The notes: generated by a model from the sequence alone, not told the origin. A DNA stretch of 64,000 bases from Candidatus Doudnabacteria bacterium (GCA_016182875.1 JACPFQ010000001.1:85680-149679), one strand, 5' to 3'; counted from the stretch's first letter, positions 12,325 through 33,545 are shown. Program-made: numbers and translations.

Positions 12325-12979
12325 ATTTCTTGCCGGACAAATAATCCTTAAGATTTTTCAAATTTCGGCCGTTTATGATTACGACCTCAATCCCTGATTT
12401 TTCGGCGAGCTTGGCAATTGAGGGGTCAAACGGTTTGTGCTGGCCGGGTTTTCGGGAAGCTCCAAATTGAGCGCGAAATTGCCTCCAGGTCATAAAAGGG
12501 ATCAACTTCGCATTCTTAAACTTACGCGGGTCGCGGTCAAAAACCCCGTCAACATTGGTCAGGTTTATGACCGTCTTTATGTTAAGCTTTCGGGCATAAT
12601 TAATACTGCTCGAATCAGACGAGCCGCCGGGTTTGATGCCGCCGAGGGCAACCATTAGTGGCTCTTTATGCCATGCGAAATTTTTGTATGTCATCACCGG
12701 TTCGTGTTTTTTTGCGCCCAAAATCCAGCGGACGAACTGCGCGTGGAACCAGTTGGTCTCAATGCCAATCCAATCCAGCCCGGCATCGGAGACATTAGCG
12801 GCTTTTCTTGCCGCTGACTGATAGTTTCTGGCTGTGGCCCCGCCGCCCGGCAGGATCAGAAACTTCTTGCCTGTTTTTGCCTGATCCCTAACCACTTTCC
12901 TGAAATTTTTCAAAAATTTAATGTCAATCTTATCCGGCACGATGATCGAGCCCCCCAGCGATATAATGTAGCGTTTCAT
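12296..12979 (-). CDS. pyrH: Archaeal-type UMP kinase (amino-acid-kinase fold); internal ATG with its own SD, and in frame with the upstream FtsQ-like ORF
   Basis: 'ISLGGSIIVP', 'ILPGGGATARNY', 'VALGGIKPGGSSDSS', 'VINLTNVDGVF'. SD GGAGA 6 nt upstream of the internal ATG. Confidence 0.75.
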   Translation of the reverse strand: MKRYIISLGGSIIVPDKIDIKFLKNFRKVVRDQAKTGKKFLILPGGGATARNYQSAARKAANVSDAGLDWIGIETNWFHAQFVRWILGAKKHEPVMTYKNFAWHKEPLMVALGGIKPGGSSDSSSINYARKLNIKTVINLTNVDGVFDRDPRKFKNAKLIPFMTWRQFRAQFGASRKPGQHKPFDPSIAKLAEKSGIEVVIINGRNLKNLKDYLSGKKFKGTVIVAR

Positions 12980-13870
12980 TTTTGTTCTCCAATAAACCCA
13001 TTTTTCCGAGCGCATGTCGATATAGGCCAGGTTGCTCTTGTCTTTGGCCGGAATGTGCTTATTAATCATAAGCGACAAACCGGCCAGCTGAACCGCTACC
13101 GGCCTACTGACGTCAAAGAACACGCTCCAGCCGGCCTCCGAAGTAAACTGGGATTCAAAGCTATTCTTGGAAGTAATTTTAATCGAACTGATCCTCGAAT
13201 CTATTTTGGACGGCCAGGCCCGGTGCATCGACTGGATGAACGCGACCAGCTTCGGATTGCTTAAAATCTCCCCCAACACCACGTCCTGGTCTTGGTTTTC
13301 ATTTACCACCAAAGGCAGGCCTTTTTCGTCCGTGACCTCTTTCAAGACCAAACCCTCTTCATCGACCAAAAATTTTCTCTCCTTCATACTCAGGACAAAG
13401 CCAGGGTTGCGCTCCGATATTTCAATCTCAATTTTGTTTGGCCAAGATCTATTGACCTTTGTTACTTCCCGCACTTCTGGTACGGTTTTGGTCATTAATC
13501 TATTCAGCCGGCCGCGCGTCATAAGAAAAAAATGATTCCTGGGGATTAAGAACAGCCGGCTGTTGGAAGCGGCGTCCAAAACCTCTTTTACCTGTTCATA
13601 TGAAACTTGGCCCCCACCCTTCACCGCAACTTCGGTAATCAAGAGTTTGCCTGAAACCACCGAATAATAAAAGACCAGGATAAAAGCCGCGGCGCTGATA
13701 AACTTAATTCTTCGGCGGCTGAAAGGCGGCAAAAGAGGCACTCTGAAGCGATACTTCGGCATGTTAAACGTCCGCTTATAGGCGGCGGCTTGTCTGAGGC
13801 GGGAGCGGAAAGTGGGCGAGCCGAATCTCCTTCGGGGTTCCAGTTTTCTTCTGTGCTTCGAGAATATCAT
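12980..13870 (-). CDS. ftsQ: FtsQ/DivIB-like cell-division protein (TM helix plus POTRA), with no stop before the UMP kinase
   Basis: Basic N-tail, TM 'FISAAAFILVFYYSVV', and POTRA 'LITEVAVKGGGQVSYEQVKEVL...WPNKIEIEISERNPGFV'. Part of a continuous 524-codon ORF, 12296-13870. Confidence 0.65.
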
Positions 13871-21908: not shown

Positions 21909-22094
21909 TTACTTAAGCTTATAGCCAGAGTAAGACAGATAGCTCGCAACAACCAAAGCGGCCCAGCTGGCCCACAATGGAATTTCACTGCCGGCGATGC
22001 TTATGTCCCAGCCTTTCCAAATCCTGATGAGATGGACGACAGCAATGACCAAGAACAAAAACGGCGTAATCGTAAGATATGTTTTTTGTTTCAT
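21909..22094 (-). CDS. Small membrane protein (61 aa, 2 TM)
   Basis: Hydrophobic. No homology recognised. Confidence 0.35.
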   Translation of the reverse strand: MKQKTYLTITPFLFLVIAVVHLIRIWKGWDISIAGSEIPLWASWAALVVASYLSYSGYKLK

Positions 22095-22133
22095 GCCGAG
22101 TATTAATTGTTTTTTATATTATAGCACAAAATA

Positions 22134-22541
22134 TTATTTACTCTGCAACTTGGCCATATCCATGTAAATGACCTCCCACAGATGCCCGTCCAAATCCTCA
22201 AAGCTGCGGCCATACATCCAGCCGTGGTCTTCGGATGGCCGCGATTCCCGCCCGCCGGCGGCAACCACTTTGTCTATCATCCAATCAACCTGCTCGCGGC
22301 TATCGACAGAAAAGGCATTGATGACTTCCGTGCTGGCTTTGGGTTCGACCATCTCTTTTTCCGTAAACCTCTTCATGAACTGCTCGGTCAAAAGCATGGC
22401 AAAGGCGCTATCATTGATAATCATGCACGTGGCATTCTCATCCGTGAACTGCGGATTGAATCTAAACCCAAGCTTAGTGAAAAAGTCAATGGATTTATTG
22501 AGATCCTTCACTGCCAAATTCACAAACATCTGTTTGGCCAT
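22134..22541 (-). CDS. VOC-family (glyoxalase/bleomycin-resistance fold) protein
   Basis: 'FVNLAVKDLNKSIDFFTKLGF' and a paired beta-alpha-beta-beta-beta pattern. Confidence 0.7.
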   Translation of the reverse strand: MAKQMFVNLAVKDLNKSIDFFTKLGFRFNPQFTDENATCMIINDSAFAMLLTEQFMKRFTEKEMVEPKASTEVINAFSVDSREQVDWMIDKVVAAGGRESRPSEDHGWMYGRSFEDLDGHLWEVIYMDMAKLQSK

Positions 22542-22562
22542 AAATTGCTATGTTTTAATGCC

Positions 22563-23150
22563 TTAGAAGTTAGCTCCAAAATCTAGTTTTGGTTGCTCTG
22601 CATCCATATCATCGTACAGAGCCAAAAGTTCGTCAACAGACATTTGTTCTTCTGCAAATTTGCCCGAGCTGATTTCTTTGGAATCATTAACACTGCAAAT
22701 AATCCCATCGCCTGGAAGAATGCCTTTATCGCGAAGCTCACGCATCATATCACGGCAATCCTGGCAAGGGTGTAGCGCATCGTGTGCCCGGGTTTTGTCG
22801 CCCGTATGCTTTTCGCTTGCAACAGTGACCATAGCAGGGATCAAGGTAGCTCCTTTTTCCAGCGCCGCCTCAAAAACATTTCTCTCTGCGCAACGTTTAT
22901 CCCTGCCTCTCCGCTTTACCGGTGTCGGAGTGAAATTGTACCCAGTGTATACGGCATATTCGCCATCCGGAAGTCCCGGCTCAATACTCATAGCCGCAGC
23001 GCCAACTTGAAACGGCGGTTCCCGGTGGGAGATACCGTGCCGTTTGGCCATTGCCGCTGCCCGGATAAGCGCAGCTTTGTATTTTAGAAAGTCTCGTCGG
23101 TAGTCTCGATTATGGAACCGTTCACGGCGAGATTCTGGGCCTGAATTCAT
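22563..23150 (-). CDS. Cytidine/deoxycytidylate-deaminase-like zinc-binding protein with an N-terminal extension
   Basis: 'CAERNVFEAA' and 'HPCQDCRDMM' match the CDA zinc-ligand motifs (C/H-A-E ... P-C-x-x-C). Confidence 0.5.
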   Translation of the reverse strand: MNSGPESRRERFHNRDYRRDFLKYKAALIRAAAMAKRHGISHREPPFQVGAAAMSIEPGLPDGEYAVYTGYNFTPTPVKRRGRDKRCAERNVFEAALEKGATLIPAMVTVASEKHTGDKTRAHDALHPCQDCRDMMRELRDKGILPGDGIICSVNDSKEISSGKFAEEQMSVDELLALYDDMDAEQPKLDFGANF

Positions 23151-23198
23151 ATCTTTAAATGCTGATTAAAAAAATTTAATGTCCTCTTAACGCTCGCA

Positions 23199-23501
23199 TT
23201 AAAACTTCATCTTAGATTTAATAAGATCCCAAACGGCCACCCGGGGGTTCTTCTCAGGTGCTTTGGACCACCAGGATTTCAGGATTGGCAATGAAAAAGT
23301 CGAAAACAAATAGCCAACGGCCGGCACGAATGCCTTGAGCCAGGAATAAGCTTCATGAATCAAAACCAGCCAAACCCCAGCAATGATATAGATGACAGCA
23401 GTAATGAACAACCGCCTGGTCCAGCTGATCTCCCACGCCTTGTCAGCTTCAACTTTTCTGTTGCGCTCCTTAATCAATCCTATTTCTTTTTCTATGTCCA
23501 T
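23199..23501 (-). CDS. Hypothetical 2-TM membrane protein
   Basis: Hydrophobicity only. Confidence 0.4.
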   Translation of the reverse strand: MDIEKEIGLIKERNRKVEADKAWEISWTRRLFITAVIYIIAGVWLVLIHEAYSWLKAFVPAVGYLFSTFSLPILKSWWSKAPEKNPRVAVWDLIKSKMKF

Positions 23502-23523
23502 AACTTACATTAGAGATTTGCCT

Positions 23524-24018
23524 TCAAAAAATTAGCTCCATCTGAAGCTGGTCTGTGTATTCCTCTCCGATTTTCATTTCATGTTTAGCCAGGCCAGCTT
23601 GAACAAATCCGATTTGTTCGTACATCTTGATCGCCGCGTCTTGAGTGGTGTTAACGCTTAATCTGACTTTGGTTATCTTGGGGTTGCGGCGCAGGTCATC
23701 GAGCAGTCTTTGCACCAGGCTTTTACCGATGCCTTGGCCGCGATGTGCGGGATCCACGTACACTCCTACTATAGTTGCCATATGCTGAAAGTATTTTTTA
23801 TCCGTAAACAACACGCCAGCCATCCCCACCAATTTGCCATCTGCTTCCGCGCCGTAGATTGTCTTATGTCCTGACAACCTGCCCTTCCATTCTTCTTCCG
23901 TGAAATCAACTTCCTCTTCATAAGCCTTACCGAAAGCCCTGGGATCTTGCCGCAGTCCCTGCAGTCTCAGCTGTTTATATTTTTCCCAATTCTCAGGACC
24001 AAGAATTCTTATATCCAT
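23524..24018 (-). CDS. GNAT-family N-acetyltransferase
   Basis: 'VGVYVDPAHRGQGIGKSLV' (acetyl-CoA binding motif A). Confidence 0.8.
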   Translation of the reverse strand: MDIRILGPENWEKYKQLRLQGLRQDPRAFGKAYEEEVDFTEEEWKGRLSGHKTIYGAEADGKLVGMAGVLFTDKKYFQHMATIVGVYVDPAHRGQGIGKSLVQRLLDDLRRNPKITKVRLSVNTTQDAAIKMYEQIGFVQAGLAKHEMKIGEEYTDQLQMELIF

Positions 24019-24092
24019 ATTGTCTCCTTATTTCACAAATGATGCAAAAAAAAAGCGGAAAAAATTGCATAAATTACCCAGGTCATAGTTGT

Positions 24093-24118
24093 TATTCTCC
24101 TATTCGCGCGAATTAGAG
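24093..24118. promoter_or_regulatory. Palindromic operator-like repeat ATTCTCCTATTCGCGCGAATTAGAGA, copy 1 (upstream of the GNAT gene, overlapping the 3' end of arsR-1)
   Basis: Perfect 12-bp palindrome ATTCGCGCGAAT. Three copies, at 24093, 24391 and 24734. Confidence 0.5.
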
Positions 24119-24373
24119 ATCGATGAGAAGTGATTTTACGAACGGGCGAAGCTTGGAATTGATACTGTAAAAAACATTTAAATTCCTCTGCTCTCGTTCC
24201 AATAGGTCAGCTCGCGCCAGAATGTTCAAGTGTTTAGAGGTGGCCTTAAAAGAAAGTCTTATTGCTCTGGCAACTTCCTGTACTGAAGCCTCTCTTTCTA
24301 TTTTAAGAAACTGTAATATGTACAGTCGTCGCCGATTAGCCAAGGCTTTAAGAATATTCTCTAATTCTTTCAT
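24113..24373 (-). CDS. ArsR/SmtB-family transcriptional regulator
   Basis: 'ANRRRLYILQFL...VQEVARAIRLSFKATSKHLNIL' is a wHTH. Confidence 0.8.
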   Translation of the reverse strand: MKELENILKALANRRRLYILQFLKIEREASVQEVARAIRLSFKATSKHLNILARADLLEREQRNLNVFYSINSKLRPFVKSLLIDL

Positions 24374-24390
24374 GATACCATTATACTACT

Positions 24391-24416
24391 ATTCTCCTAT
24401 TCGCGCGAATTAGAGA
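24391..24416. promoter_or_regulatory. Operator-like palindrome copy 2, immediately upstream of arsR-1
   Basis: Identical 26-mer. This position is consistent with autoregulation. Confidence 0.5.
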
Positions 24417-24426
24417 AGGTTAACTA

Positions 24427-24729
24427 CTAAGGTTTTATCTCCAACAAAAGACTTACGGTATCGCCGGCTAAGATGTGTTCTTTTTTCCGTACCTCTGCTT
24501 TGAGCGGCAAAAGGTATGCTCCGGCTTTTTTATCGAAAAAAATAGACGTGTTCCAGATTGTTTGTTCGAGTCTAACAATAACTGGAAGCGAACTCCAACC
24601 TCTATGCGCAACAGCGAACAGTTGCTTGATTTTGCCCGACTGATTCTTGAGTAAAGTCACCATATGCCAGGCAGCTATCCCAGGATAAAGCCAGACCCTG
24701 GCCCGCATTTTATAAACCGTTCCTGTCAT
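24427..24729 (-). CDS. DUF1905-domain protein (paralog 1)
   Basis: 'WLYPGIAAWHMVTL...GWSSLPVIVRL...YLLPLKAEVRKKEHILAGDTVSL'. Confidence 0.6.
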   Translation of the reverse strand: MTGTVYKMRARVWLYPGIAAWHMVTLLKNQSGKIKQLFAVAHRGWSSLPVIVRLEQTIWNTSIFFDKKAGAYLLPLKAEVRKKEHILAGDTVSLLLEIKP

Positions 24730-24733
24730 AACT

Positions 24734-24789
24734 ATTCGCTTATTCGCGCGCCTGCCCGCCGAAGCTTTAGCGAAGGCGGGAATTAGAGA
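24734..24789. promoter_or_regulatory. Operator-like palindrome copy 3, split by a 30-bp GC-rich hairpin insertion (CCTGCCCGCCGAAGCTTTAGCGAAGGCGGG)
   Basis: ATTCGCGCG | insertion | AATTAGAGA. The inserted hairpin has stem GCCCGCC/GGCGGGC. Confidence 0.5.
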
Positions 24790-24797
24790 TGGTTAGC

Positions 24798-25109
24798 TCA
24801 GGGTTTAATTTCTAAAACGAGACTGATCGTCTGACCGCCGGTGACTTTTTCTTTCTTGCGTACTTCTGCTTTCAGAGGCAGGACATATGCTGCGGATTTT
24901 TTGTCATAGAAAATTGATGTCTTCCAACTGGTCCGGCCGAGCCTGACGATAACGGGCAAAGAACTCCATCCTCGGTGCATATCCGAAAACAACTCCTTGA
25001 TCTTGTCTGACTGCTTGCGGGGCAGAGTCACCATATGCCACGCCGCCATTCCTGGCCAAATCCAAACCTTGGTTTTGATTTTATACCGACTCCTTGGTAA
25101 CATTCTCAT
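24798..25109 (-). CDS. DUF1905-domain protein (paralog 2)
   Basis: Same pattern as paralog 1, about 60% identical by eye. Confidence 0.6.
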   Translation of the reverse strand: MRMLPRSRYKIKTKVWIWPGMAAWHMVTLPRKQSDKIKELFSDMHRGWSSLPVIVRLGRTSWKTSIFYDKKSAAYVLPLKAEVRKKEKVTGGQTISLVLEIKP

Positions 25110-25132
25110 ATTCTTAAGAATATTGGAATATC
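25100..25132. promoter_or_regulatory. 31-bp repeat ATTCTCA(C/T)ATTCT(C/T)AAGAATATTGGAAT(G/A)TC, copy 1 (promoter region of DUF1905 paralog 2)
   Basis: Four copies, at 25100, 25440, 26907 and 27041. Nested palindromes CATTC..GAATG and AATATT. Confidence 0.5.
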
Positions 25133-25436
25133 AAAACTGCGAAAGGATCTTCTTGAATCTTTCACCATAAGGCGAAAGCTGGTGTTCAACCTTCCGCCCT
25201 TTGTAAGCCTTATTAACCAATCCCGCCTGTACCAGGCGGCGAGTATGCTCAGAGATAGTCTTAAAGTTGCAACGAAGCACATCCGCGATCTGTTCTAGAT
25301 TAATCCCCGGCTGCCTGGCTATCAGCAATAAAATATCGATCCGCCGATGGTTGGCTATCCCCTTAAAATGTCTTTCAAGTTGTTTCGCTGTTTTCATTTC
25401 TTTTTCGCTTCGGACTCTATAAAACCAGTCTATCAC
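25131..25436 (-). CDS. ArsR-family transcriptional regulator (paralog 2)
   Basis: 'HRRIDILLLIARQPGINLEQIADVLRCNFKTISEHTRRLVQAGLV'. Confidence 0.8.
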   Translation of the reverse strand: MIDWFYRVRSEKEMKTAKQLERHFKGIANHRRIDILLLIARQPGINLEQIADVLRCNFKTISEHTRRLVQAGLVNKAYKGRKVEHQLSPYGERFKKILSQF

Positions 25437-25439
25437 AAC

Positions 25440-25470
25440 ATTCTCACATTCTCAAGAATATTGGAATGTC
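25440..25470. promoter_or_regulatory. 31-bp repeat copy 2, immediately upstream of arsR-2
   Basis: Near-identical to the other copies. Confidence 0.5.
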
Positions 25471-25498
25471 TTAACGCCCCAGACCCCGTGTGGGACGT

Positions 25499-25831
25499 TT
25501 ATTTCTTAAGATAAGTCACGCTTCTGCCGGTTCGGCCGATTTGGCGCAATTTGCCTTGCTTTTCCAACTCATCCAGATATCGCTCGGCTGAGGTGTTGGA
25601 GACTCCAAGCATTTTTTCAACCATGTCATTGGTAATTTCATCATTCGCTCCAAAGCTAGCAAGAATCCGATCCAAATTTTTCCGGTGCTCTTCGGCCCGC
25701 ATCAGGTTCACTTCATTTTCGTCCCTGCCTACTTTGCCATTCTGGGGAAGAATCTGATTTTTGCCGAACCAAAATTTGGCAAAAATAACGCCAATGAGGA
25801 AGCCAATGGATATCATCAAAAAATCTCTCAT
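25499..25831 (-). CDS. Membrane-anchored protein with a C-terminal wHTH-like domain (110 aa)
   Basis: N-terminal TM 'ISIGFLIGVIFAKFWF', C-terminal 'ERYLDELEKQGKLRQIGRTGRSVTYL'. Truncated copies of its 5' end lie at 26332-26403 and 27045-27107. Confidence 0.5.
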   Translation of the reverse strand: MRDFLMISIGFLIGVIFAKFWFGKNQILPQNGKVGRDENEVNLMRAEEHRKNLDRILASFGANDEITNDMVEKMLGVSNTSAERYLDELEKQGKLRQIGRTGRSVTYLKK

Positions 25832-25844
25832 AAAATTTTAATTA

Positions 25845-26003
25845 ATATTTATCCATAATGGCAGTTGCATCGTAACCATACTCTTCGGCTTGTTTCAAGA
25901 TTTCTTTCAACTCACCTTTCTTTATAAGAATAAACCCTGATTTTCTCAGGGCCTTAAGGATTCTCGACTGCGAGACATCAGACGGTAACTTAGGTGGTAA
26001 CAT
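25845..26003 (-). pseudogene. HicA-like toxin remnant (52 aa, lacks the central GSH segment)
   Basis: 'MLPPKLPSDVSQSRILKALRKSGFILIKKGE..LKEILKQAEEYG' matches the HicA N- and C-terminal segments but not the catalytic core. Overlaps the upstream gene by 14 nt. Confidence 0.35.
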
Positions 26004-26328
26004 GAACTAATTGATTTTGTTTCTCAAACAGGTCACCTTTGATATTGATTAAGGCAGGGTGGCAGAACCGCGCCGGAACTTCAAACGCTGTAAAAATAGC
26101 ATCTTTGATATTGTGCTCTAATTCCTCTATTGTGGCCCCACTGGTGATTATAGTACCTCGAGTGTAGTCAACAGAGCGGGCAACGAAGTATGATTGTCCG
26201 TCTTCTTCAACTTTCTCAAATCGAAAATTAATACCTCTACCCCTTAACTCAACAAGCATATCTTCTAGATTATCATGAGCTTGATTTTTTGTAGCAGTAT
26301 ATGATTGTATTCTTTGTAGTAATCTCAT
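25990..26328 (-). CDS. HicB/UPF0150-like antitoxin-fold protein
   Basis: 'FRFEKVEEDGQSYFVARSVDYTRGTIITSGATIEELEHNIKDAIFTAFE'. Confidence 0.5.
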   Translation of the reverse strand: MRLLQRIQSYTATKNQAHDNLEDMLVELRGRGINFRFEKVEEDGQSYFVARSVDYTRGTIITSGATIEELEHNIKDAIFTAFEVPARFCHPALINIKGDLFEKQNQLVHVTT

Positions 26329-26331
26329 GAT

Positions 26332-26403
26332 TTAATTATAGTCTAATCGTTTTAGGTGGTCAATAAACAAAAACCCAACAGCCACCATCAAAAAATCTCT
26401 CAT
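26332..26403 (-). pseudogene. Truncated duplicate of the 5' end of gene 25499-25831 (MRDFLMVAVGFLFIDHLKRLDYN*)
   Basis: ATGAGAGATTTTTTGATG plus a conserved upstream 'TTAATTAAA' are identical to the intact gene start. Confidence 0.5.
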
Positions 26404-26441
26404 AAATTATTTAATTAAATTCCAAGAATTCAGATTTTTAC

Positions 26442-26850
26442 CTACTGAACCATAATAGTATAGTTTAGAGTAATAACACCAGTTTTTAATTTATGAAATA
26501 CAAAAAGATACGCAGGTTTGTTCCGCTGATTTTTCTTAATCTTTAATTTCCTACTAACCTGGTCCAATAACTTTATTGGTAAGATAATAAATTCGTTGAT
26601 TCCCGTTTCACGGGTACGCGCTACTAGCACAGTAAAAACTCTTGACTCAACAAACTGAAAAGTGCCCAGTCTTATTCCAATGCTTTGTCTTGACCTGAAT
26701 AAGATAAGTCCTTGCTTCTTTTATTGCAGCAATATCCACACCATAATCAACCGGCAAAATATTTGCATTAAACCCCCGAAACAAAAGCTCGCTCATAACA
26801 GCAGCTTCTCCGCCTTTACCAGTAAAGATATTGATTGATCTCTTGTCCAT
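26442..26850 (-). other. Two small ORFs (62 and 67 aa); the 67-aa ORF has a PD-(D/E)xK-like signature (VDYGVDIAAIKEARTYLIQVK), possibly nuclease gene remnants
   Basis: ORFs at 26442-26630 and 26647-26850, in a region full of gene fragments. Confidence 0.3.
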
Positions 26851-26906
26851 AGATAAAGTCTACCACAAAAGAAAAAGCGTCTTTAGCCAACGTCAACCTT
26901 TATGAT

Positions 26907-26937
26907 ATTCTCACATTCTCAAGAATATTGGAATGTC
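26907..26937. promoter_or_regulatory. 31-bp repeat copy 3
   Basis: Identical core. Confidence 0.45.
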
Positions 26938-27040
26938 AATTCCGTTTTCGACACATTTGTACCAATATCCGAATTGCACCTGCCCAGCCGTCTGGCGGGG
27001 TAATTAAGCAAATCAAGGTTCGATCATGAAGAGTTCTAAT

Positions 27041-27071
27041 ATTCTCACATTCTCAAGAATGTCGGAATGTC
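27041..27071. promoter_or_regulatory. 31-bp repeat copy 4 (variant ..AAGAATGTCGGAATGTC)
   Basis: Truncates the gene-start fragment at 27045-27107. Confidence 0.45.
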
Positions 27072-27107
27072 TAAGAACCCGACAGCAACCAATAAAAAAT
27101 CTCTCAT
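27045..27107 (-). pseudogene. Second truncated duplicate of the 25499-25831 gene start (MRDFLLVAVGFLDIPTFLRM*)
   Basis: Same ATGAGAGATTTTTT start. The reading frame runs into the 31-bp repeat. Confidence 0.45.
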
Positions 27108-27877
27108 AGTGGAATGGATGTAAATGACTGTCGAGAATTTCTTTCAAATTGCCTTAGTTCTTCTTCGCGGATAATCGAATAACGAGAATCATTAAGCCTC
27201 TCCAACGGACAGAAAAATAACCGCGCGGGTTTTTTGGGACTGCCTCCCACTCCGATTACCACAAAAACAGACATCCCCTGTTTTCTACCATATTCTCTAT
27301 AATTTTCTCCCTTCCTTTTGTCCCAGTCTATGCCGCCCTTAAAAAAATATGAGCGATACTTACACTCAACCGCCAATATCTTTCCTGTCCCAATATGCCG
27401 GAAGGTAAAATCAGGATTAGAGTCGGATTCCACTGTCCGTTTAAGAATCTTTGAAAAATCCCTGGTCTTATCAACAACAACCCAGATATCTCTTGGAAAA
27501 AGAGAGGCTACATGGCTTTCGAACTTATAACCTTTTCCGAAGGTGTCATAATAAAGCCAAAGGAAAACCCCGAACACAATCGCGACTACTAAATCTAACA
27601 CCTGCCAAATCTTAGCGTTATGCAGATAAATTGGGACAACCGGATTGAAGAGTATAACTGCTCCAATAAATCCCAGGATCCAGTAAATTTTTCTGCTCCG
27701 GTAAGCAATAAAACTAAGAACAATACCAGCCAAGCTAACAAGCCATCGCAATATGCCAAAGTCGCCTCGATACAAACCCGCCGCTGCGACTAGTAGTGTG
27801 ATGATAACTATCCAGATTAAAATACGCGTTATAACTTCCGGATTCATAAATTTATACCTTTTGCTTAAGTTTACCAC
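27104..27877 (-). CDS. Membrane-anchored NERD (nuclease-related domain) protein
   Basis: 3-4 N-terminal TM helices, then C-terminal 'GKGYKFESHVASLF...DFTFRHIGTGKILAVECKYRS...SVFVVIG', the NERD/PD-(D/E)xK pattern. Confidence 0.6.
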   Translation of the reverse strand: MVNLSKRYKFMNPEVITRILIWIVIITLLVAAAGLYRGDFGILRWLVSLAGIVLSFIAYRSRKIYWILGFIGAVILFNPVVPIYLHNAKIWQVLDLVVAIVFGVFLWLYYDTFGKGYKFESHVASLFPRDIWVVVDKTRDFSKILKRTVESDSNPDFTFRHIGTGKILAVECKYRSYFFKGGIDWDKRKGENYREYGRKQGMSVFVVIGVGGSPKKPARLFFCPLERLNDSRYSIIREEELRQFERNSRQSFTSIPL

Positions 27878-28035
27878 AAAACAAAAACTATCGTCATTTG
27901 ACGTCGTCTAATAATAATTAGTATTCAGGTTATTGACTAATTTACTTCCGAATAATAAAATTAAGGTATGGTGGAGGCGCGAGAGACACCAAAACCACGA
28001 AAGGTCGAAAATAATTAATTTAAAGGACCAATAAA

Positions 28036-28257
28036 ATGGCCAATCAGCATATTGTTTACCGAGGGCACAATGAATGGGCGGTTAGACGCGAAAAAGCTAG
28101 CCGAGATACAATCGTTGTAGACAATCAGCAAGAAGCTTTTGATATTGCAAGAGATATTGCTGAAAATCAAGGTGGCGAAGTGTTTATTCACGGCAGAGAC
28201 GGTAAAATCCGTGAACGGAATACTTACAAGGATGACCCCTATCCGCCAAAGGGTTAA
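28036..28257 (+). CDS. DUF2188-domain protein
   Basis: '...GGEVFIHGRDGKIRERNTYKDDPYPPKG' (DUF2188 C-terminal signature). Confidence 0.65.
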   Translation: MANQHIVYRGHNEWAVRREKASRDTIVVDNQQEAFDIARDIAENQGGEVFIHGRDGKIRERNTYKDDPYPPKG

Positions 28258-28288
28258 TTAATAACCTGAAAATGAAAACAAAAAATTA

Positions 28289-28317
28289 AAAACCGCCAGA
28301 ACTACTGGCGGTTTTTG
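28289..28317. terminator. Bidirectional terminator between the convergent DUF2188 genes
   Basis: AAAACCGCCAG-aacta-CTGGCGGTTTTT. Confidence 0.65.
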
Positions 28318-28323
28318 CTTTAT

Positions 28324-28620
28324 CTAATTTTTAGGTGGATATGGATCAGAAGAATAAAACCTGGTTTCAATAAGGCCATTTCTATTGTGAATAAAGATCT
28401 CTCCCCCATTTTGGCCAGTGTCTTCCCTAGCCTTTGATAAGGCTTCATCACGAGTACTATATCTTTTTTCTTCCCTAGCTCCAATTCTTTTTACTTTCCA
28501 TTCTCCATCTTTTGGAAAAATATGAACATTTCTCTGCCCACGCTTAATAGCCTCAGTATATGATCTTATCTGGGGATTATTCTTATTATTTCTTTTCAAT
28601 GGTATTTCTTTAGGTGCCAT
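28324..28620 (-). CDS. DUF2188-domain protein (paralog)
   Basis: '...NGGEIFIHNRNGLIETRFYSSDPYPPKN'. Confidence 0.65.
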   Translation of the reverse strand: MAPKEIPLKRNNKNNPQIRSYTEAIKRGQRNVHIFPKDGEWKVKRIGAREEKRYSTRDEALSKAREDTGQNGGEIFIHNRNGLIETRFYSSDPYPPKN

Positions 28621-28624
28621 ATGT

Positions 28625-29221
28625 CTATTCTGAAACCAATTTGATTATATCATCTTTAGTATATTGATTTTCTCTTAAATAGGCAAGCAAATCACCTCTA
28701 GTTTCAAATTTTAACTCGGTAAAACTCAAATCTTCCCCTAAATAAGCGTTCTTGATAAGTTTGATCTCTACGTGAGGATAGTTTTCTGCTATCCAAAGCA
28801 AGGTCTTCCTTGCTGAGGAATGTTTTTCATAAAAGTATCTGTCACTAAATTTTCTGTCCCGGTTAAGAAATGCAACGAAGGCTTGTTTGAAATCTTGGGG
28901 CCAAACGGCATGAATTTCTATCTTTTTCTTAGATTTACTAATTCTTCCTATTTTAATTCCTGCGCCTTTTTCGGTTGGAAGTATACCGTCTAGGACGATT
29001 AAATCTTGCTTATCTAAATATTCTGAAAAATATTCGGTTTTTCCAGATGCAGGTCCACCAGACAATAAAACGACCTTTTCAAATTTAGATGTTTTAATTG
29101 TCTCGTAAAGCTTTGCGTCGGCTAACTTAGCAGATTCACTATGAAATTCCTCAGATCGTTCTGGCGAGTATCCTGGTAAATCCTTTTTAATATCATCAGC
29201 AGAAATCAATATCGAAGTCAT
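28625..29221 (-). CDS. P-loop kinase, zeta-toxin/AAA_33-like
   Basis: Walker A 'LSGGPASGKTEYF', about 200 aa, nucleotide-kinase-like. The family assignment is tentative. Confidence 0.45.
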   Translation of the reverse strand: MTSILISADDIKKDLPGYSPERSEEFHSESAKLADAKLYETIKTSKFEKVVLLSGGPASGKTEYFSEYLDKQDLIVLDGILPTEKGAGIKIGRISKSKKKIEIHAVWPQDFKQAFVAFLNRDRKFSDRYFYEKHSSARKTLLWIAENYPHVEIKLIKNAYLGEDLSFTELKFETRGDLLAYLRENQYTKDDIIKLVSE

Positions 29222-29326
29222 TTATATAAATTTATTCATTTTCTTCAATTTCAAATCCTAGTTTGTTTTGCAGTTCTTTCGGTTGTAATAATAAGGTAAA
29301 ATAACCTAAAACTCCTTCAATCCGTA

Positions 29327-29644
29327 TTAATAAAATTCTCTATCAACATAAATTTCTGAAGAATAAATCTTACGTTCTGGGCCGCTCATTACTAATCGTG
29401 GCTTAATTTCTGATTGAGGTATTGTAAAGTCATGTAAATCTTCTCCAGATGCTACAGCTAGCTCTTTTATGCAATCATTAAACTCATTAGCATATTTCCC
29501 TTGTACATGAGATTTAGGCAAATTATTTTTTAACGCTGTCAATTTAGATAACGATCTGGCGAGTTGCTTATCCATAATTGAAGGATTCTTATATTTTAGA
29601 AAAACCAAAATCTTTTCCGACAGGTTTAAGTTCTTGATTATCAA
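29327..29644 (-). CDS. Hypothetical 105-aa protein, translationally coupled to the upstream EVE-nuclease gene
   Basis: ATGA overlap with the 29641-30693 gene. No recognisable domain. Confidence 0.4.
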   Translation of the reverse strand: MIIKNLNLSEKILVFLKYKNPSIMDKQLARSLSKLTALKNNLPKSHVQGKYANEFNDCIKELAVASGEDLHDFTIPQSEIKPRLVMSGPERKIYSSEIYVDREFY

Positions 29645-30693
29645 CAGTGTTCTAAATAATTAATAAAATCAATATATTTTTTATCGGTTGGTTCCCGTGA
29701 TGGGACTAAAATCCTGTATTGGTCCTCAAAAGTTATATTCTTTTCTTTTTTGAATTTATTGATCTCAAAATAATCATATTCATATAGTTGCACTATTCCT
29801 TTTCGTGCTTGGACTTTAAAATTTCTGTTTTCTGTACTTTTTACTTCAAAGAGAAATGAACGCTTACCGTCATGCGCAAACAAATCAACATACTCATTAG
29901 AAAGCGTAGCATATCCCTTCTTTCTAAATATGCTTATCAGTTGTTCAAGGACAGAATGATGAGATGCTTCTGCTCGAGCCAGAATATCATTATCTCGCTC
30001 GACTATAGAATAAGGTTTAATTATTAATCGCTTCTTGATTGATTCTAAAAATCTCAAGGAAGCTGCGTGTCTTAGAGTTTCAGTTGCATTATGAACTTCA
30101 ACTAAATCTGATGCCTTCTGTTCAATCGCGGGACCACGAGTTGAGTGTCCGGTATATAAATGTAATGGCCTATTTTGAAATAAAATTTGTTGAGCAACTT
30201 CGGGCCGTACCGTGGAAAAACTACCCATTTGTGGGAAACCCTTAATTTCTGAAATTGGGATTCGATTTCCAACCAGTTGACTAATCAGTGGAACCGTAGC
30301 AACATCATTGGCTGGTGTGGGTGATTCCCAATTTGCAGGATTAGGTAATTCGCCGAATAAATATATTTCAGTTAACGGAACTAATAATGGCCAACGGTTT
30401 ACATTGTTTTTTATTTCATAATGCCATAAATAGTTATTTTTTATCGAAAAATCAAAACCAACTACTCCAATTCCGATTATGCCGGATTTAGCTACGCCCG
30501 GGAAAGCTGAAGTATCTCCTGATGAACTATGAATAAAAAATATATCGCCTGTTTGCAATTTTTCCCAATCTTTTCTATTTTTGTCTTTAGCTTCAAGTCC
30601 CCAAGTAAAATATTTAATAGCGGTCAACCAGTGCTCAGGCGGACCAGTAAACTTAAAAAACTGTTTTTGATTTAGAGCCGAAGAAAGATCCAT
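29641..30693 (-). CDS. EVE (PUA-like) domain fused to a PD-(D/E)xK nuclease (DUF3883-like); putative modification-dependent restriction endonuclease
   Basis: N-terminus 'KQFFKFTGPPEHWLTAIKYFTWGLE...LQTGDIFFIHSSSG...GIIGIGVV' is EVE-like. C-terminus 'VDLFAHDGKRSFLFEVKSTENRNFKVQARKGIVQLYEY' carries D...E-x-K. Confidence 0.55.
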   Translation of the reverse strand: MDLSSALNQKQFFKFTGPPEHWLTAIKYFTWGLEAKDKNRKDWEKLQTGDIFFIHSSSGDTSAFPGVAKSGIIGIGVVGFDFSIKNNYLWHYEIKNNVNRWPLLVPLTEIYLFGELPNPANWESPTPANDVATVPLISQLVGNRIPISEIKGFPQMGSFSTVRPEVAQQILFQNRPLHLYTGHSTRGPAIEQKASDLVEVHNATETLRHAASLRFLESIKKRLIIKPYSIVERDNDILARAEASHHSVLEQLISIFRKKGYATLSNEYVDLFAHDGKRSFLFEVKSTENRNFKVQARKGIVQLYEYDYFEINKFKKEKNITFEDQYRILVPSREPTDKKYIDFINYLEHC

Positions 30694-31040
30694 TATAATT
30701 TATTGTACTTAGTATGTTTCCCTTTGGCTTTGTCTACTGGGTATTTCTTCTCGTTCTGTTCCATTTTTTTATGAAAAGCTTCAATTATATCAACACCAAT
30801 ATCATTACTGATAAGCAATACCCAATAAAGGACGTCGGACAATTCTTCAGCTACTTCTTCTTTATGATCTTTCACATACGCTTCCATTTCTTCTTTGTTT
30901 TTCCATTGAAAATGCTCAGCCACTTCCGCAGCTTCTAACATCAAGGACAAGGCTAAGTCTTTAGGATTATGAAACTGCTTCCACTCTCTATCATCTCTGT
31001 ATTTAATTATTCTGTCAGTTAAATCTTTTATATCCGACAT
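30693..31040 (-). CDS. MazG-like nucleoside-triphosphate pyrophosphohydrolase (all-alpha dUTPase/dCTPase-like)
   Basis: 'EWKQFHNPKDLALSLMLEAAEVAEHFQWK...ELSDVLYWVLLISNDIGVDI'. Its stop overlaps the start of the EVE gene. Confidence 0.7.
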   Translation of the reverse strand: MSDIKDLTDRIIKYRDDREWKQFHNPKDLALSLMLEAAEVAEHFQWKNKEEMEAYVKDHKEEVAEELSDVLYWVLLISNDIGVDIIEAFHKKMEQNEKKYPVDKAKGKHTKYNKL

Positions 31041-31221
31041 AAAAAATTATCCAAATTACTTGGCTTAATAATGCCACGAATTGCTTGGAAAATCAATCAA
31101 CATCTCAGACGGGTGTGGGGTGTTAGATTAAGGTTATAGGTTTTAGGTGATAGGTTATAGAAATCAAAAACGGGCCTTGAAGCCGCTTTAAATATATTAG
31201 CTTTCGCTTGGGTCAAATTTG

Positions 31222-31250
31222 TTGACGAGTTTATACTTAAAACCTAAAAT
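31222..31250 (+). promoter_or_regulatory. Near-consensus sigma70 promoter (TTGACG, 17-nt spacer, TAAAAT)
   Basis: -35 at 31222-31227, 17-nt spacer, -10 at 31245-31250. Confidence 0.45.
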
Positions 31251-31256
31251 CTTTGT

Positions 31257-31394
31257 ACCGTCAGATTTTGGGGAAAGCAGGACGAAAACCCTGCCAGAGA
31301 CACCTGGTCAAAACCTCCACTTGGGTTCGGAGGGGCTTCGAGGGCACCAGGCACCTGTTGAGGTGAGGACTCCTCCAATTCTGACGGCTTTTTC
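31257..31394 (+). ncRNA. Candidate small structured RNA (~135 nt) closed by a long-range stem ACCGUCAGA...UCUGACGGC plus UUUUUC
   Basis: Transcript predicted from the promoter above. Ends pair over 9-10 bp, and the internal hairpins GCAGG..CCUGC, ACCUGG..CCAGGU and CCUCC..GGAGG are followed by a T-run. Class not identified. Confidence 0.35.
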
Positions 31395-31442
31395 TTATGA
31401 AAAAAATCAGCTGGCAAGATTTGCTCCTGCCAGCCTTAACTC

Positions 31443-31692
31443 TCAGACCCGCCGGAAGTCTCGGCCTTCGGACGGTTGGTACAACCCAAGCTTGCGGTTG
31501 CTGCGGTTGGGGAAGACCGGGATGGTGCCTGCGATGAACCTGCCGAGGTCTGTAACCTCGCGGTCATAGCGTTTGGCCCGCACCCAATCTTCTCTCTTGA
31601 CGGCCCGGCCACGAAGTTTCTCGTAGCGCTTCTTGAGGAACTCGGCTGCCGCCAGTTCATTCATGTACTTGATTTGCTCCAACCCGTGCATA
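31443..31692 (-). CDS. Hypothetical 82-aa ORF downstream of the DUF62 gene
   Basis: Starts at MHGLEQ and overlaps the 3' end of the DUF62 gene by about 35 nt. Sits in the GC-rich island. Weak support. Confidence 0.3.
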
Positions 31693-32481
31693 CTCACCTC
31701 CTGCTTCATGAACGGCCAGTAAATCACCGACCTTAAGTCCCAATCTTGCCGCTGCCGACCCGCCCTTGACCACGATTTCGAGGAACCGCGTATTAGCAAG
31801 CCCCGAACTGCCGATGACCACGGCCAACTCGCCTTCCGGCACGTCACAGAGCCGCGGGTAAACCGGCAGATGTCCCAGATATTGCCGGTACCGCCGGTCA
31901 GACAAGCCAACCACATCCTCGGTCGTCAGCGTGGTCTTGAGATTACCAAAGCAATCAACATACCAGACGACCTCCTCTGTCCACGGCTCAATTTCTTGCG
32001 GCGGACCCCCGTGAAAACCGACTGACTCGAACTCCGCAACAAGCAAAGGCAGAAAATCAAAGCTGCGGAATTGCGAACTTTCGATCTGCAGCCGCTCGTG
32101 GTCGTCGATAACCTGGGCGTAAACCAGCTGCTGCAGCGTGCGCGCGACATCAATCGGGTAGCAGGAACGAATGCCGACCTTGGGCAGCAGTCCCAGGGTG
32201 TTGACCGTCGTTACAACGAACGGGCCATCTTTGCATTCCACCTGTACGAACGGCGGGCCATTGGTACCTGACGTCTGCTCGTTCCGAGGTGCGACATTGC
32301 ACAGAATCCAGCCCGGTGCGTTCCCAGCCGCATCCAGCGCGTCGATCAGGCAGCCGGCGGCTTCGTACTCGTTGACCACAGGCATGGTGGTCACCGGACA
32401 ATTAAGCCAAGCAGCTGCTCTAGTAGACAGCCTCCCCAAAGCATTGGCATCGGAGCAGTCGTTGATTATGGTCACAAACAT
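31657..32481 (-). CDS. DUF62 family protein (SAM hydroxide adenosyltransferase / SAM-dependent halogenase (fluorinase/chlorinase) family)
   Basis: N-terminus 'MFVTIINDCSDANALGRL...', 'NVAPRNEQTSG', C-terminal 'LEIVVKGGSAAARLGLKVGDLLAV'. Perfect SD AAGGAGG. Coding GC is about 62%. Confidence 0.6.
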   Translation of the reverse strand: MFVTIINDCSDANALGRLSTRAAAWLNCPVTTMPVVNEYEAAGCLIDALDAAGNAPGWILCNVAPRNEQTSGTNGPPFVQVECKDGPFVVTTVNTLGLLPKVGIRSCYPIDVARTLQQLVYAQVIDDHERLQIESSQFRSFDFLPLLVAEFESVGFHGGPPQEIEPWTEEVVWYVDCFGNLKTTLTTEDVVGLSDRRYRQYLGHLPVYPRLCDVPEGELAVVIGSSGLANTRFLEIVVKGGSAAARLGLKVGDLLAVHEAGGEYARVGANQVHE

Positions 32482-32544
32482 CTTTGGCCTCCTTAGTGAT
32501 TCCGACGCTGCGGTCGGAATGATTTTACTTCGTAAAATCAAAAA

Positions 32545-32700
32545 GCCTCTTTCTTCATGAAAGAGGCTTGCCTAAGTACTTTTGGTGTCAAACCCGTCTA
32601 ACGGGTTAAATGCCCAAACAGGCCTCTTCCATGGAAAGAAGCCATCATCATAGCGCCCGAGCAGGTTCGATATAGGAATTTCATTAAGATTATCTTAAGC
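32545..32700 (-). promoter_or_regulatory. Riboswitch-like 5' leader of the DUF62 gene, with mutually exclusive terminator and antiterminator hairpins
   Basis: Minus-strand RNA has hairpin GGCUUCUUUCC-AUG-GAAGAGGCC, hairpin ACCCGU-UAG-ACGGGU, then terminator AAGCCUCUUUC-AUGAA-GAAAGAGGCUU plus UUUUGAUUUU 40 nt before the SD. The 3' half of the first hairpin can pair with the 5' half of the terminator. A GAUGAUGG k-turn-like element is present. Ligand class unassigned. Confidence 0.4.
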
Positions 32701-32724
32701 TTGAGTAAATAAAAAGTCAAATAA

Positions 32725-32758
32725 AAACCGGAGCGGACCGCGGGGTCTGCTCCGTTGG
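32725..32758 (-). terminator. Rho-independent terminator of gene 32801-33127
   Basis: On the minus strand: GGAGCAGACCC-cgc-GGTCCGCTCC followed by GGTTTTTATTT. Confidence 0.6.
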
Positions 32759-32800
32759 AATGCACAAACGGCCTGGGCGGCCGGCGATGGAATCAGGGAA

Positions 32801-33127
32801 TCACTGGTCGCCTGGAATACCAGTCCCCCTCGTGCTGGCAAAGAACACCGGAACCGCAACGCTTGCTGCCAGCATAACGACGCAGGTAGCAAACAGCCAG
32901 AACACTTCCTTGTAGAAGCTTGCGGCTCCAATGAGCGCGTATGTGGTCCGCGTCGCCCAGTGAGGCTTGCCCACAAGGAAGACGCAGAGGTAGAACACGA
33001 CATCGCGCAGCCCGTTGACCGGGCCGGTGTTGATCCTGGGTCTCGGAGTCGGCGGCAGAGACGCGTAGTCCTCGCCGCTATAGTGCCCGGTCTCACCGCG
33101 CATAAGAGCCTCCTTCCCATTGGACAT
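32801..33127 (-). CDS. Hypothetical small membrane protein (108 aa), in the GC-rich island
   Basis: Two TM helices, GC about 62%. A longer alternative ORF 32695-33165 overlaps. No homology recognised. Confidence 0.4.
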   Translation of the reverse strand: MSNGKEALMRGETGHYSGEDYASLPPTPRPRINTGPVNGLRDVVFYLCVFLVGKPHWATRTTYALIGAASFYKEVFWLFATCVVMLAASVAVPVFFASTRGTGIPGDQ

Positions 33128-33143
33128 GTGGCATATAGTTTAG

Positions 33144-33176
33144 CAAAAACCGCCACTTTGTTCAATGGCGGTTTTT
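33144..33176. terminator. Hairpin AAAAACCGCCA-ttgaacaaagt-TGGCGGTTTTTT at the island boundary
   Basis: 7-bp stem with A and T runs on both sides. Confidence 0.55.
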
Positions 33177-33545
33177 TCGTTTGAGCTCGGCTTCGTGGAC
33201 TTCTTCTTCATCCATGCCGAAGTGGTGGGCGATTTCGTGCCAGACCGTGTTTTTGATAATTTCCTTCATGTCTTCCAGATCCCTGGCAACTCGTTCGATG
33301 GGCTCTTGAAAAATCGTAATTTTGTCCGGCAAAACGCCGCCGTAATACGGGCCGCGCTTGTTCTGCGGCACGCCTTCGTAAAGCCCAAACAAGGTCCAGC
33401 CGTGCCGCAGGCGCAGTTTATGCGCCTGCTCCGGGGTCGGATGGTCTTCGACAACAATGGCGACATTATTCAAAAGTTCCAAAAATTTCGCCGGAATGGC
33501 TTCGATGCCCTGACTTACCAACTGCTCAAACTCTTCCTTAATCAT
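33162..33545 (-). CDS. Zincin_1/DUF1025 (COG3824) minimal metallopeptidase-like protein
   Basis: 'HEIAHHFGMDEEEV'. Confidence 0.65.
   Translation of the reverse strand: MIKEEFEQLVSQGIEAIPAKFLELLNNVAIVVEDHPTPEQAHKLRLRHGWTLFGLYEGVPQNKRGPYYGGVLPDKITIFQEPIERVARDLEDMKEIIKNTVWHEIAHHFGMDEEEVHEAELKRKNRH

Follow-up and report, generated by a model that had tools for sequence, protein, structure and literature searches.

Leader-peptide attenuators are textbook devices for Trp, His, Phe, Leu, Thr and Ile/Val, and Canestrari et al. reportedly described in 2020 mycobacterial attenuators built from poly-cysteine leaderless short open reading frames (ORFs) that control downstream genes. The biological role of the DUF62 proteins has been debated since their discovery, with current proposals centring on the repair of an inactive epimer of S-adenosylmethionine (SAM). 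Here, we describe a locus that joins a leader with methionine codons to a gene for a divergent DUF62-fold enzyme. It lies in a 64,000-nt stretch of DNA (hereafter, the window) from Candidatus Doudnabacteria bacterium (GCA_016182875.1 JACPFQ010000001.1:85680-149679), a member of a lineage of ultra-small bacteria. Both parts of the locus, the DUF62-fold enzyme and the leader-peptide attenuator, are variants of known things. Our preferred reading, to which we assign a probability of about 0.6, is that of a methionine-attenuated DUF62-fold enzyme that would release methionine and adenosine from SAM, its R-epimer or a close analogue on starvation.

According to a 2010 survey, Proteobacteria and Actinobacteria were the only groups with leader-peptide systems known at the time, to which the survey added a histidine case from Firmicutes (PMC2965389). 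In the literature that we could cover, which is incomplete, we found neither a leader-peptide attenuator based on methionine codons nor any leader peptide from Patescibacteria; the use of Met, the occurrence in this lineage, the leaderless layout and the combination with an enzyme of a SAM-cleaving fold provisionally appear to be new. The Doudnabacteria leader resembles the trpL, hisL, pheL, thrL, leuL, ilv and pheST leaders in having successive codons for a single amino acid within a short ORF, regions 1–4, a mutually exclusive antiterminator and terminator, and a cognate gene downstream, and, as in the case of pheST, Met leaders precede the gene of the cognate aminoacyl-tRNA synthetase (metG) in two loci. 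Unlike the classical attenuators, it has AUG as the regulatory codon, a host from the Patescibacteria and an apparently leaderless ORF with a promoter abutting its ATG and no Shine–Dalgarno (SD) sequence, and it would control the gene of a SAM-cleaving-fold enzyme, not a biosynthetic operon. The mycobacterial poly-Cys attenuators reportedly share the leaderless ORF and the consecutive codons for a sulfur amino acid, but differ in the amino acid and the lineage; in the Doudnabacteria leader, an explicit intrinsic terminator/antiterminator pair is present. Met T-boxes and SAM riboswitches (S-box and others) serve the same need, sensing Met-tRNA or SAM through transcription termination, whereas the sensor proposed here is a putatively translated ORF. 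Neither a T-box nor a SAM riboswitch, a known leader or any other credible Rfam family was matched at gathering thresholds in the whole window and three related loci, or at E up to 10 in 30900-33400.

The enzyme gene (32481-31657, − strand; 274 aa) is separated by a non-coding leader of ~320 nt, on the same strand, from a 100-aa ORF upstream. An earlier note on this DNA, made from the sequence alone, had proposed a dedicated regulatory leader, and one is indeed present, comprising a promoter, a leader ORF, an antiterminator and a terminator, all on the − strand. The sigma-70-like promoter (TTGACT, 17 nt, TAAGAT; 32720-32692) matches the consensus at 9 of 12 positions, and 7 bases past it lies the ATG of a leader ORF of 28 codons plus stop (MKFLYRTCSGAMMMASFHGRGLFGHLTR; 32684-32598, stop codon 32600-32598), which has no SD sequence. 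We infer that transcription starts at, or 1 nt before, this ATG and that the leader ORF is probably read from a leaderless mRNA; leaderless translation would explain the missing SD sequence, given that the −35/−10 pair abuts the ATG. Within the ORF, three consecutive Met codons (ATGATGATG; 32651-32643) are the proposed regulatory codons. The final base of the Met run is also the first of region 1 (GGCUUCUUUCC; 32643-32633), which forms hairpin 1:2 (−12.2 kcal/mol) with region 2 (GGAAGAGGCC; 32630-32621). Region 4 (32553-32543) is almost a copy of region 2, as region 3 (32569-32559) is of region 1, which enables region 2 to pair with region 3 as well. The resulting antiterminator 2:3 (32630-32559) has a predicted energy of −29.4 kcal/mol including internal helices, and its duplex alone reaches −19.2 kcal/mol compared to −10.0 kcal/mol for shuffles (z −3.97). 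The intrinsic terminator 3:4, AAGCCUCUUUC-AUGAA-GAAAGAGGCUU followed by a U-run (32569-32536; −15.8 kcal/mol), lies 55 nt upstream of the enzyme ATG. Between the two lie a small hairpin (32520-32499), absent from the closest homologous locus (L005), and the SD sequence AAGGAGG (32494-32488). By anatomy, the leader is a classical four-region leader-peptide attenuator.

Folding predictions delimit how such an attenuator would work. If region 1 is masked and the transcript is cut off after region 3, the 2:3 pairing is the fold of minimum free energy (MFE); in equilibrium folding of the full transcript with the mask of a 'stalled ribosome', the terminator is still present. The antiterminator wins only co-transcriptionally, with the transcript ending after region 3, which makes the attenuator model a kinetic one, as is the case for classical attenuators.

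A different account of the same elements is that they are not regulatory at all: the terminator would simply end the 100-aa gene, and the ATG run would be due to chance or belong to an unrelated peptide or RNA motif. Indeed, the window leader has three ATG codons only and its ORF no SD sequence, the terminator does stand downstream of another gene, and the thermodynamic MFE fold of the whole leader is a nested 1:4/2:3 structure, not 1:2 plus 3:4. Against this account, the promoter sits between the 100-aa gene and the leader, and the leaders of related loci argue for selection on the Met codons. We surveyed the upstream regions of 83 loci encoding members of the enzyme family, 82 of them non-redundant. 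Clusters of at least four ATG in six in-frame codons occur 25 times in the 32.4 kb upstream of the family, compared to five times in the other 1.09 Mb of the loci (both strands), which amounts to a 168-fold enrichment at this threshold; moreover, three of the five clusters found elsewhere are upstream of the gene too, separated from it by a small ORF. When the threshold is set at three or more Met in six codons, a Met-cluster ORF (e.g. MNYATKSQHMMMAMMTLFPRRLVL, MRDTFAVMMMSMMMAGRLGPVRSRA and MSKAYRMMNMMMAPERGRI) is present at 33 of the 82 loci, with three to seven Met within a stretch of 6–9 codons. Such leaders occur at homologue loci with entirely different upstream genes, at many of which sigma-70-like −35/−10 pairs directly precede the leader ATG, and they are widespread, being found in at least 10 named candidate phyla in the loci sampled.

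The architecture downstream of the Met codons is retained as well. A hairpin with a T-run lies between the Met ORF and the gene in 32 of the 33 Met-leader loci, and the complementarity of the post-Met segment to the 5′ arm of the terminator exceeds that of shuffles (z < 0) in 29 of 32 loci, reaching p ≤ 0.05 in 17. Terminator arms pair better with their own leader than with the leaders of other loci (permutation p = 0.0002), showing that the two co-vary. The spacers between ATGATG dimers measure 3 nt (14 cases), 6 nt (10) or 1 nt (1), and never 2, 4, 5, 7 or 8 nt; multiples of three thus account for 24 of 25, with eleven different codons in use as spacers. Phasing by 3 nt with variable codons is what selection on codons would predict, and not what a sequence-specific RNA motif would. 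Finally, the closest homologue, L005, encodes a protein only 49% identical to that of the window, yet 32 of 34 bases of the leader core (the hairpin 1:2 region) are identical, and in its terminator a T>C change is compensated by A>G. Taking these observations together, we regard a non-regulatory origin of the Met-rich ORF and its hairpin as improbable.

We also scanned metagenomes with the pattern ATGATGATGNNNATGATGACC, in which NNN also matches ATG, so that mostly ATG microsatellites were matched. The scan yielded one extra leader of the type seen in the Candidate Phyla Radiation (CPR), located at 9677-9800 of contig L145, where MQKTGAMMMAMMTSRAEDFCLHS, a hairpin and a T-run lie between a shikimate kinase gene and pyrF-pyrE.

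The genes surrounding the family provide an additional link to methionine. A gene for methionyl-tRNA synthetase (MetRS) adjoins the enzyme gene in four independent lineages, represented by L005 (1160-4550), L019 (3001-5509), L055/L056 (591-4770 in L055) and L072 (3001-6744), often accompanied by that for TatD; PF09334, at 327–452 bits, confirms the MetRS of L055 and L019. The Met leader of L005 and L072 is followed by the enzyme gene, metG and tatD, in that order, and the attenuator may also control metG there. Besides metG and tatD, all-against-all clustering of neighbours revealed no gene present in more than five surveyed loci. The Met-codon attenuator and the recurrent adjacency of metG point to amino-acid metabolism, and not to defence evasion.

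The earlier note had assigned the enzyme to DUF62 and named a profile search as the test of that assignment. In this search, PF20257 (SAM_HAT_C) scored 43.4 bits against a cutoff of 25.5, and the assignment survived, with the match covering the C-terminal domain only (residues 192-274); the same match is precomputed for most homologues. A sequence search of the PDB returned weak matches of the C-terminal domain to PH0463, the Thermus thermophilus homologue (TTHA), the Thermotoga maritima protein and MJ1651. The AlphaFold (AF2) model built from 26 family sequences has a predicted local distance difference test score (pLDDT) of 86.9 and a predicted template modelling score (pTM) of 0.86. When it was compared with the PDB by Foldseek, the best 27 matches were all chains of the DUF62 family (E 5e-11 to 5e-8, ~280 aligned columns), the next match having an E value of 0.05; only structures of this family were matched across both domains. 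On the strength of this model, we consider the DUF62 fold assignment secure, and file the protein in the DUF62 fold superfamily, although not as a proven SAM hydrolase.

Within this superfamily, sequence comparison places the enzyme in a divergent clade spread across Patescibacteria/CPR. A protein database search returned 209 homologues, with the QFRS motif in all 120 of those listed, and a scan of genome contigs found 130 relatives, whose informatively named records are overwhelmingly from Patescibacteria (Wildermuth-, Lipton-, Taylor-, Nomura-, Moranii-, Magasanik-, Uhr-, Dojka-, Doudna-, Kerfeld- and Peribacteria, and Microgenomates). The main restriction to Patescibacteria and the predicted Met attenuator both set the clade apart from the DUF62 hydrolases. 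In the alignment of 26 sequences, the invariant residues are D8, N62, A64-P65-R66, G75, F78, Q137-F138-R139-S140, P145, D176, G179-N180, K182, T184, G224-S-S-G227, E235 and A243. They define the motifs N62-x-A-P-R66, Q-F-R-S 137-140, D176-x-x-G-N-x-K-x-T184 and G-S-S-G 224-227, after the first two of which we refer to the clade as 'NVAPR/QFRS'.

A second subfamily of the clade was observed in four IMG/VR contigs classed as viral, with members at L090 2219-3046, L092 3-776 and L093 3889-4899 among them. It is recognizable by the motifs MDYAPGD..., SNCAPR, GSQFRSRD and GSSGG, and resembles the high-GC group P0099-P0120.

The chemistry of the DUF62 family, in which a nucleophile attacks C5′ of SAM and L-methionine leaves, converts SAM and hydroxide to adenosine and L-Met (PMC4859513, PMC10491745), and (R)-SAM hydrolase activity has been reported for DUF62 proteins (bioRxiv 10.1101/2025.08.29.672840; PMC10491745). 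This documented activity speaks for a housekeeping (R)-SAM repair hydrolase, a canonical DUF62 enzyme whose upstream elements would be incidental or would merely modulate its level, as do the fold and the C-terminal domain common to PH0463, MJ1651 and the T. maritima protein, and the name 'SAM hydroxide adenosyltransferase' that some sources give to members of the clade. The IDxxFGN motif with its Asn215-equivalent, a conserved feature of the superfamily (PMC4859513), is likewise retained: in the enzyme, it reads V-D176-C-F-G179-N180, with D, G and N invariant in the 26 sequences, and HMMER aligns this D-x-x-G-N region with D-x-F-G-N of PH0463, TTHA and MJ1651. The invariant D8 at the end of strand 1 is a candidate counterpart of the N-terminal ribose-binding Asp of the superfamily (D16 of fluorinase).

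Other features distinguish the clade from such repair enzymes. The enzyme is only 16–23% identical to the SAM hydroxide adenosyltransferases/(R)-SAM hydrolases of known structure (PH0463, MJ1651 and the T. maritima protein; 1wu8/2wr8, 2f4n and 2zbu). The Asp-Arg-His triad (D68-R75-H127 of PH0463), which activates water, is described as strictly conserved in DUF62 hydrolases (PMC4859513, PMC10491745), while the clade has an invariant Arg139 in the column of the catalytic His and an invariant Ser140 in place of the Gly that follows this His in MJ1651, with HMMER aligning S-Q-F-R-S-F-D of the family profile to S-T-F-H-G-R-D of that protein. The 'DPGVG' region of the hydrolases appears to correspond to the invariant N-V-A-P-R of the clade. 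No Pfam family, including PF01887 (SAM_HAT_N), matched the N-terminal residues 1-159 at E up to 10, and an N-domain profile of 15 family members found nothing among PDB chains, those of DUF62 proteins included, at the same limit. The NCBIfam equivalogs for (R)-SAM hydrolase score far under their cutoffs (NF058624, 27.1 versus 350 bits; NF053629, 26.2 versus 470 bits). Besides, neither absence from the syntenic site of relatives (see below) nor an attenuator of the amino-acid type would be expected for a constitutive repair enzyme. We thus hold a plain repair hydrolase to be unlikely, if worth keeping in view.

If the usual alignment holds, the Ser140 column, which follows the His/Tyr position, is what we take to be the column of the halide-binding Ser158 of fluorinase and of G131 of SalL. 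This would fit a SAM-dependent halogenase, similar to chlorinase or fluorinase, that makes 5′-halo-5′-deoxyadenosine, as would the common fold and the occurrence of SalL and fluorinase among the structural matches. The residues described for the halide site are T80/S158 in FlA and Y70/G131 in SalL (PMC4859513), and the halogenases, too, are devoid of the Asp-Arg-His triad (PMC10491745). Hydrolase-type structures, however, match the model better than SalL and FlA do, the gene is not embedded in a biosynthetic cluster, having greA, Zincin_1, small ORFs and a MazG-like gene as its neighbours in the window, and the hosts are genome-reduced; a halogenase therefore seems very unlikely.

Because the water-activating His is replaced, and considering the invariant, largely cationic set of N62, R66, R139, S140 and K182, the clade may not consist of plain SAM hydrolases. 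Its members may instead take the adenosyl group from SAM, or from a SAM-like compound that is imported, and pass it to a different nucleophile, for instance an anion such as phosphate. Another option is that they use an S-adenosyl substrate other than SAM. With phosphate as the nucleophile, a nucleotide would be made directly, and either activity would release methionine on demand, allowing symbionts to use host SAM as a source of methionine and purine.

Returning to the methionine-attenuated enzyme that we favour, its mechanism can be outlined as follows, with leader translation, the methionine response, the substrate and the products all deduced from sequence. With ample Met-tRNA(Met), the ribosome would pass through the leader, and hairpins 1:2 and then 3:4 would form, so that transcription would end 55 nt short of the gene. 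Under Met shortage, the ribosome would stall at the AUG run and mask region 1; region 2 would then pair with region 3, pre-empting terminator 3:4, and the polymerase would enter the gene, leading to synthesis of the enzyme. The latter would most likely attack C5′ of SAM, of its inactive R-sulfonium epimer or of a close analogue, yielding L-methionine and adenosine. The purpose would be the salvage of methionine (and purine) in an auxotrophic, host-dependent bacterium, and the SAM could be its own, the inactive R-epimer (bioRxiv 10.1101/2025.08.29.672840) or derived from the host. Induction by methionine shortage makes sense if methionine is the useful product of the enzyme, adenosine being a bonus for a purine auxotroph.

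Several points weigh against this reading. On the side of the enzyme, these are the invariant Arg139 in the triad His column, the N-domain that escapes both Pfam and profile searches, and the low equivalog scores; since the triad His is replaced and the N-domain bears no detectable similarity, the nucleophile and even the substrate of the clade may differ from those of canonical DUF62 proteins. Furthermore, SAM is itself made from Met and ATP, and its cleavage is a net source of Met only if the SAM is imported or would otherwise be wasted. On the side of the leader, no Met cluster is recognizable at 49 of the 82 loci, and the window leader, with just three Met codons, stands at the weak end of the family, in which others have 4–7. 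The L145 leader lies ~300 nt upstream of pyrF-pyrE with no DUF62-like gene nearby, and the Met leader may not be exclusive to the DUF62-fold enzyme. Lastly, Met starvation would leave less initiator tRNA as well, so that the leader could be translated less often and termination become favoured.

Should the preferred reading be correct, linking the clade to a sensor of methionine starvation, sometimes co-transcribed with metG, offers a testable alternative role for DUF62 proteins, namely on-demand release of methionine (and adenosine). A more far-reaching proposal is that the Met-codon leader represents the first methionine-specific ribosome-mediated attenuator, governing a small Met regulon of Patescibacteria composed of the enzyme, metG and possibly other genes, and/or that the clade is a non-hydrolase adenosyl transferase; taken jointly, we rate these extensions as doubtful. 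In any case, the Met leader provides a rare entry point to how uncultivated bacteria that depend on a host regulate their genes and sense nutrients, and its signature (a promoter, a leaderless short ORF with MMMxMM and a terminator) can be searched for genome-wide, which would define the response to methionine shortage.

The earlier note had further described the segment as a horizontally acquired GC-rich island, possibly carrying a phage-derived anti-restriction SAM hydrolase domesticated by the host. The GC content that it put at about 60% for 31450-33150 is 56.1% when computed. The enzyme gene has 57% GC compared to a window mean of 46.8%, yet this peak is not unique, as values of 55–62% also occur at 41.0-43.5 kb, 38-39 kb and 49.5-50.5 kb. 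Nor does GC-richness signal a foreign origin: GC at third codon positions (GC3) of the enzyme gene is 0.617 compared to a host mean of 0.527 (standard deviation 0.098), most large host genes lying at 0.55–0.65, and its synonymous codons fit host usage to an ordinary degree (z = −0.94). The compositional outlier is the adjacent AT-rich block at 25990-31040 (GC 0.31–0.41, GC3 0.25–0.40), where the codon-fit z is −3.8 to −5.5 for three of four genes tested and −1.39 for the MazG-like gene. The impression of a GC-rich island is thus largely a contrast with this neighbouring block.

It is synteny, and not composition, that demonstrates the accessory status of the region. The lysyl-tRNA synthetase (LysRS) of the window is 100% identical to one from a metagenome-assembled genome of Candidatus Doudnabacteria, and its taxon-named relatives at 70–79% identity are nearly all from Doudnabacteria. 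In two Doudnabacteria genomes (L214 and L215), the genes for MreC-PBP2-DUF1003-GreA and those for LysRS-Ham1-seryl-tRNA synthetase (SerRS) are contiguous, with a greA-lysS gap of just 0.26–0.83 kb; tblastn supports the orthology of the flanking genes at 39–76% identity, except for the more divergent DUF1003. None of the queried window genes from the greA-lysS interval had a tblastn match at these loci in the two relatives compared. The window thus carries, between lysS and greA, an accessory block of 11.6 kb (21909-33541) that holds the enzyme gene. The block is a mosaic of a module with 56% GC (33.5-31.4 kb), the AT-rich module (31.0-26.0 kb) and small accessory genes (25.8-22.1 kb) encoding a helix-turn-helix (HTH) protein of MarR/ArsR type, two DUF1905 proteins, a GNAT protein, a deaminase-like protein and a glyoxalase. 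No tRNA was detected in the window by a tRNA scan, no direct repeats were found flanking the block, and no integrase or transposase domains were found among its scanned ORFs. The island was therefore partly right, being correct in substance but for a larger mosaic region: the DNA of the enzyme is absent from the syntenic site of two relatives, while neither the composition and codon usage of the enzyme gene nor mobility signatures support horizontal acquisition.

The location of the gene inside a block that is missing from two related genomes is also compatible with a phage-derived, SAM-destroying anti-restriction enzyme, domesticated by the host and brought in on an acquired GC-rich island. 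To it may be added the match of the neighbouring MazG-like protein to a PHROG pyrophosphatase family, and the distant clade members of the four IMG/VR contigs, in one of which (L093) a neighbouring ORF looks like a lytic transglycosylase, by eye only. However, the enzyme itself has no PHROG or PADLOC match, and its viral relatives are few and distant, being four in 2.9 million IMG/VR contigs, 30% identical and of another subfamily, compared to 130 in Patescibacteria genomes. T3 SAMase (SAM lyase), the known SAM-degrading enzyme of phages, has a different fold. The host-like codon usage and GC3, the lack of integrase (in the ORFs scanned), tRNA or flanking repeats, and the metabolic character of Met-codon regulation and metG adjacency further oppose a phage origin, which we judge very improbable.

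In addition to the MazG-like pyrophosphatase, the AT-rich block (25990-31040) encodes a 350-aa protein with a weak match to the Hjc nuclease, a weakly zeta-toxin-like protein, two DUF2188 proteins and one DUF6804 protein; no PADLOC match was obtained for this block. A 43-nt, partly palindromic intergenic element (core ATTCTCACATTCTCAAGAATATTGGAATGTC) occurs four times in and near it (25092-25134, 25430-25472, 26897-26939 and 27031-27073), and a second element of 36 nt occurs three times (25797, 26369 and 27073) upstream of small genes (the MarR/ArsR HTH gene, DUF1905 and others). Both look like shared operator or promoter sites.

The immediate surroundings of the enzyme unit agree with several details of the earlier note, including strong SD sequences, hairpin terminators bounding the segment (real ones lie at 33174-33147, 32569-32543 and 31435-31409) and flanking MazG and Zincin/greA genes. 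From the upstream side on the − strand, these are greA (34006-33542, GreA domain match), Zincin_1 (33545-33162) and, after it, a hairpin with an A-run and a T-run on either side that would act as a bidirectional terminator (33174-33147). The start of Zincin_1 overlaps the greA stop by 4 nt (33542-33545), which suggests translational coupling; by tblastn, Zincin_1 is missing after greA in both related Doudnabacteria genomes. Next comes the hydrophobic 100-aa ORF (33103-32801, − strand) with the strong SD sequence GGAAGGAGG, a unit separate from the DUF62-fold gene and not conserved with it. For the enzyme gene, a mechanical ORF list gave 31657-32541 (− strand) with a TTG start. The true start is almost certainly the ATG at 32481, the TTG lying too far upstream, since AAGGAGG sits 7 nt before this ATG; moreover, the 274-aa product is identical to that of an independent gene call on a Logan contig of 7.2 kb, where the genes are arranged in the same way.

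Downstream, a small ORF of 73 aa (82 aa according to the gene caller; 31664-31443, − strand) overlaps the enzyme stop (ATGAATGA), and the transcription unit is closed by an intrinsic terminator with an 11-bp stem and a T-run (31435-31409, − strand), followed by a non-coding stretch of ~370 nt and the MazG-like gene (31040-30693, − strand). The 73-aa ORF is hypothetical and lineage-specific: neither it nor the 100-aa ORF matches a Pfam, NCBIfam or PHROG family, and neither these two nor Zincin_1 accompany the enzyme gene at the other homologue loci surveyed. The C-terminal extension of the enzyme, ~18 residues long (31657-31710; VHEAGGEYARVGANQVHE), with a pLDDT below 50 and absent from most aligned homologues, runs into the overlapping 73-aa ORF (31443-31664), and the native stop of the enzyme gene may have been lost.

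Elsewhere in the window, a single 524-aa ORF (12296-13870, − strand) joins FtsQ (POTRA plus FtsQ C-terminal) and amino-acid-kinase domains that are encoded by two overlapping genes in both related genomes; it is possibly a fusion, a frameshift or an assembly artefact. The 370-nt gap that separates the MazG-like gene from the enzyme unit holds a promoter-like TTGACG/TAAAAT pair (31222-31250, + strand) and, after it, a stretch of ~140 nt that is closed by a stem formed by CCGUCAGA (31258-65) and UCUGACGG (31381-88) and followed by a U-run. This stretch (31222-31400, + strand) matches no Rfam family and has an MFE of −53.2 kcal/mol with a z of only −1.68; it is possibly a small structured RNA gene.

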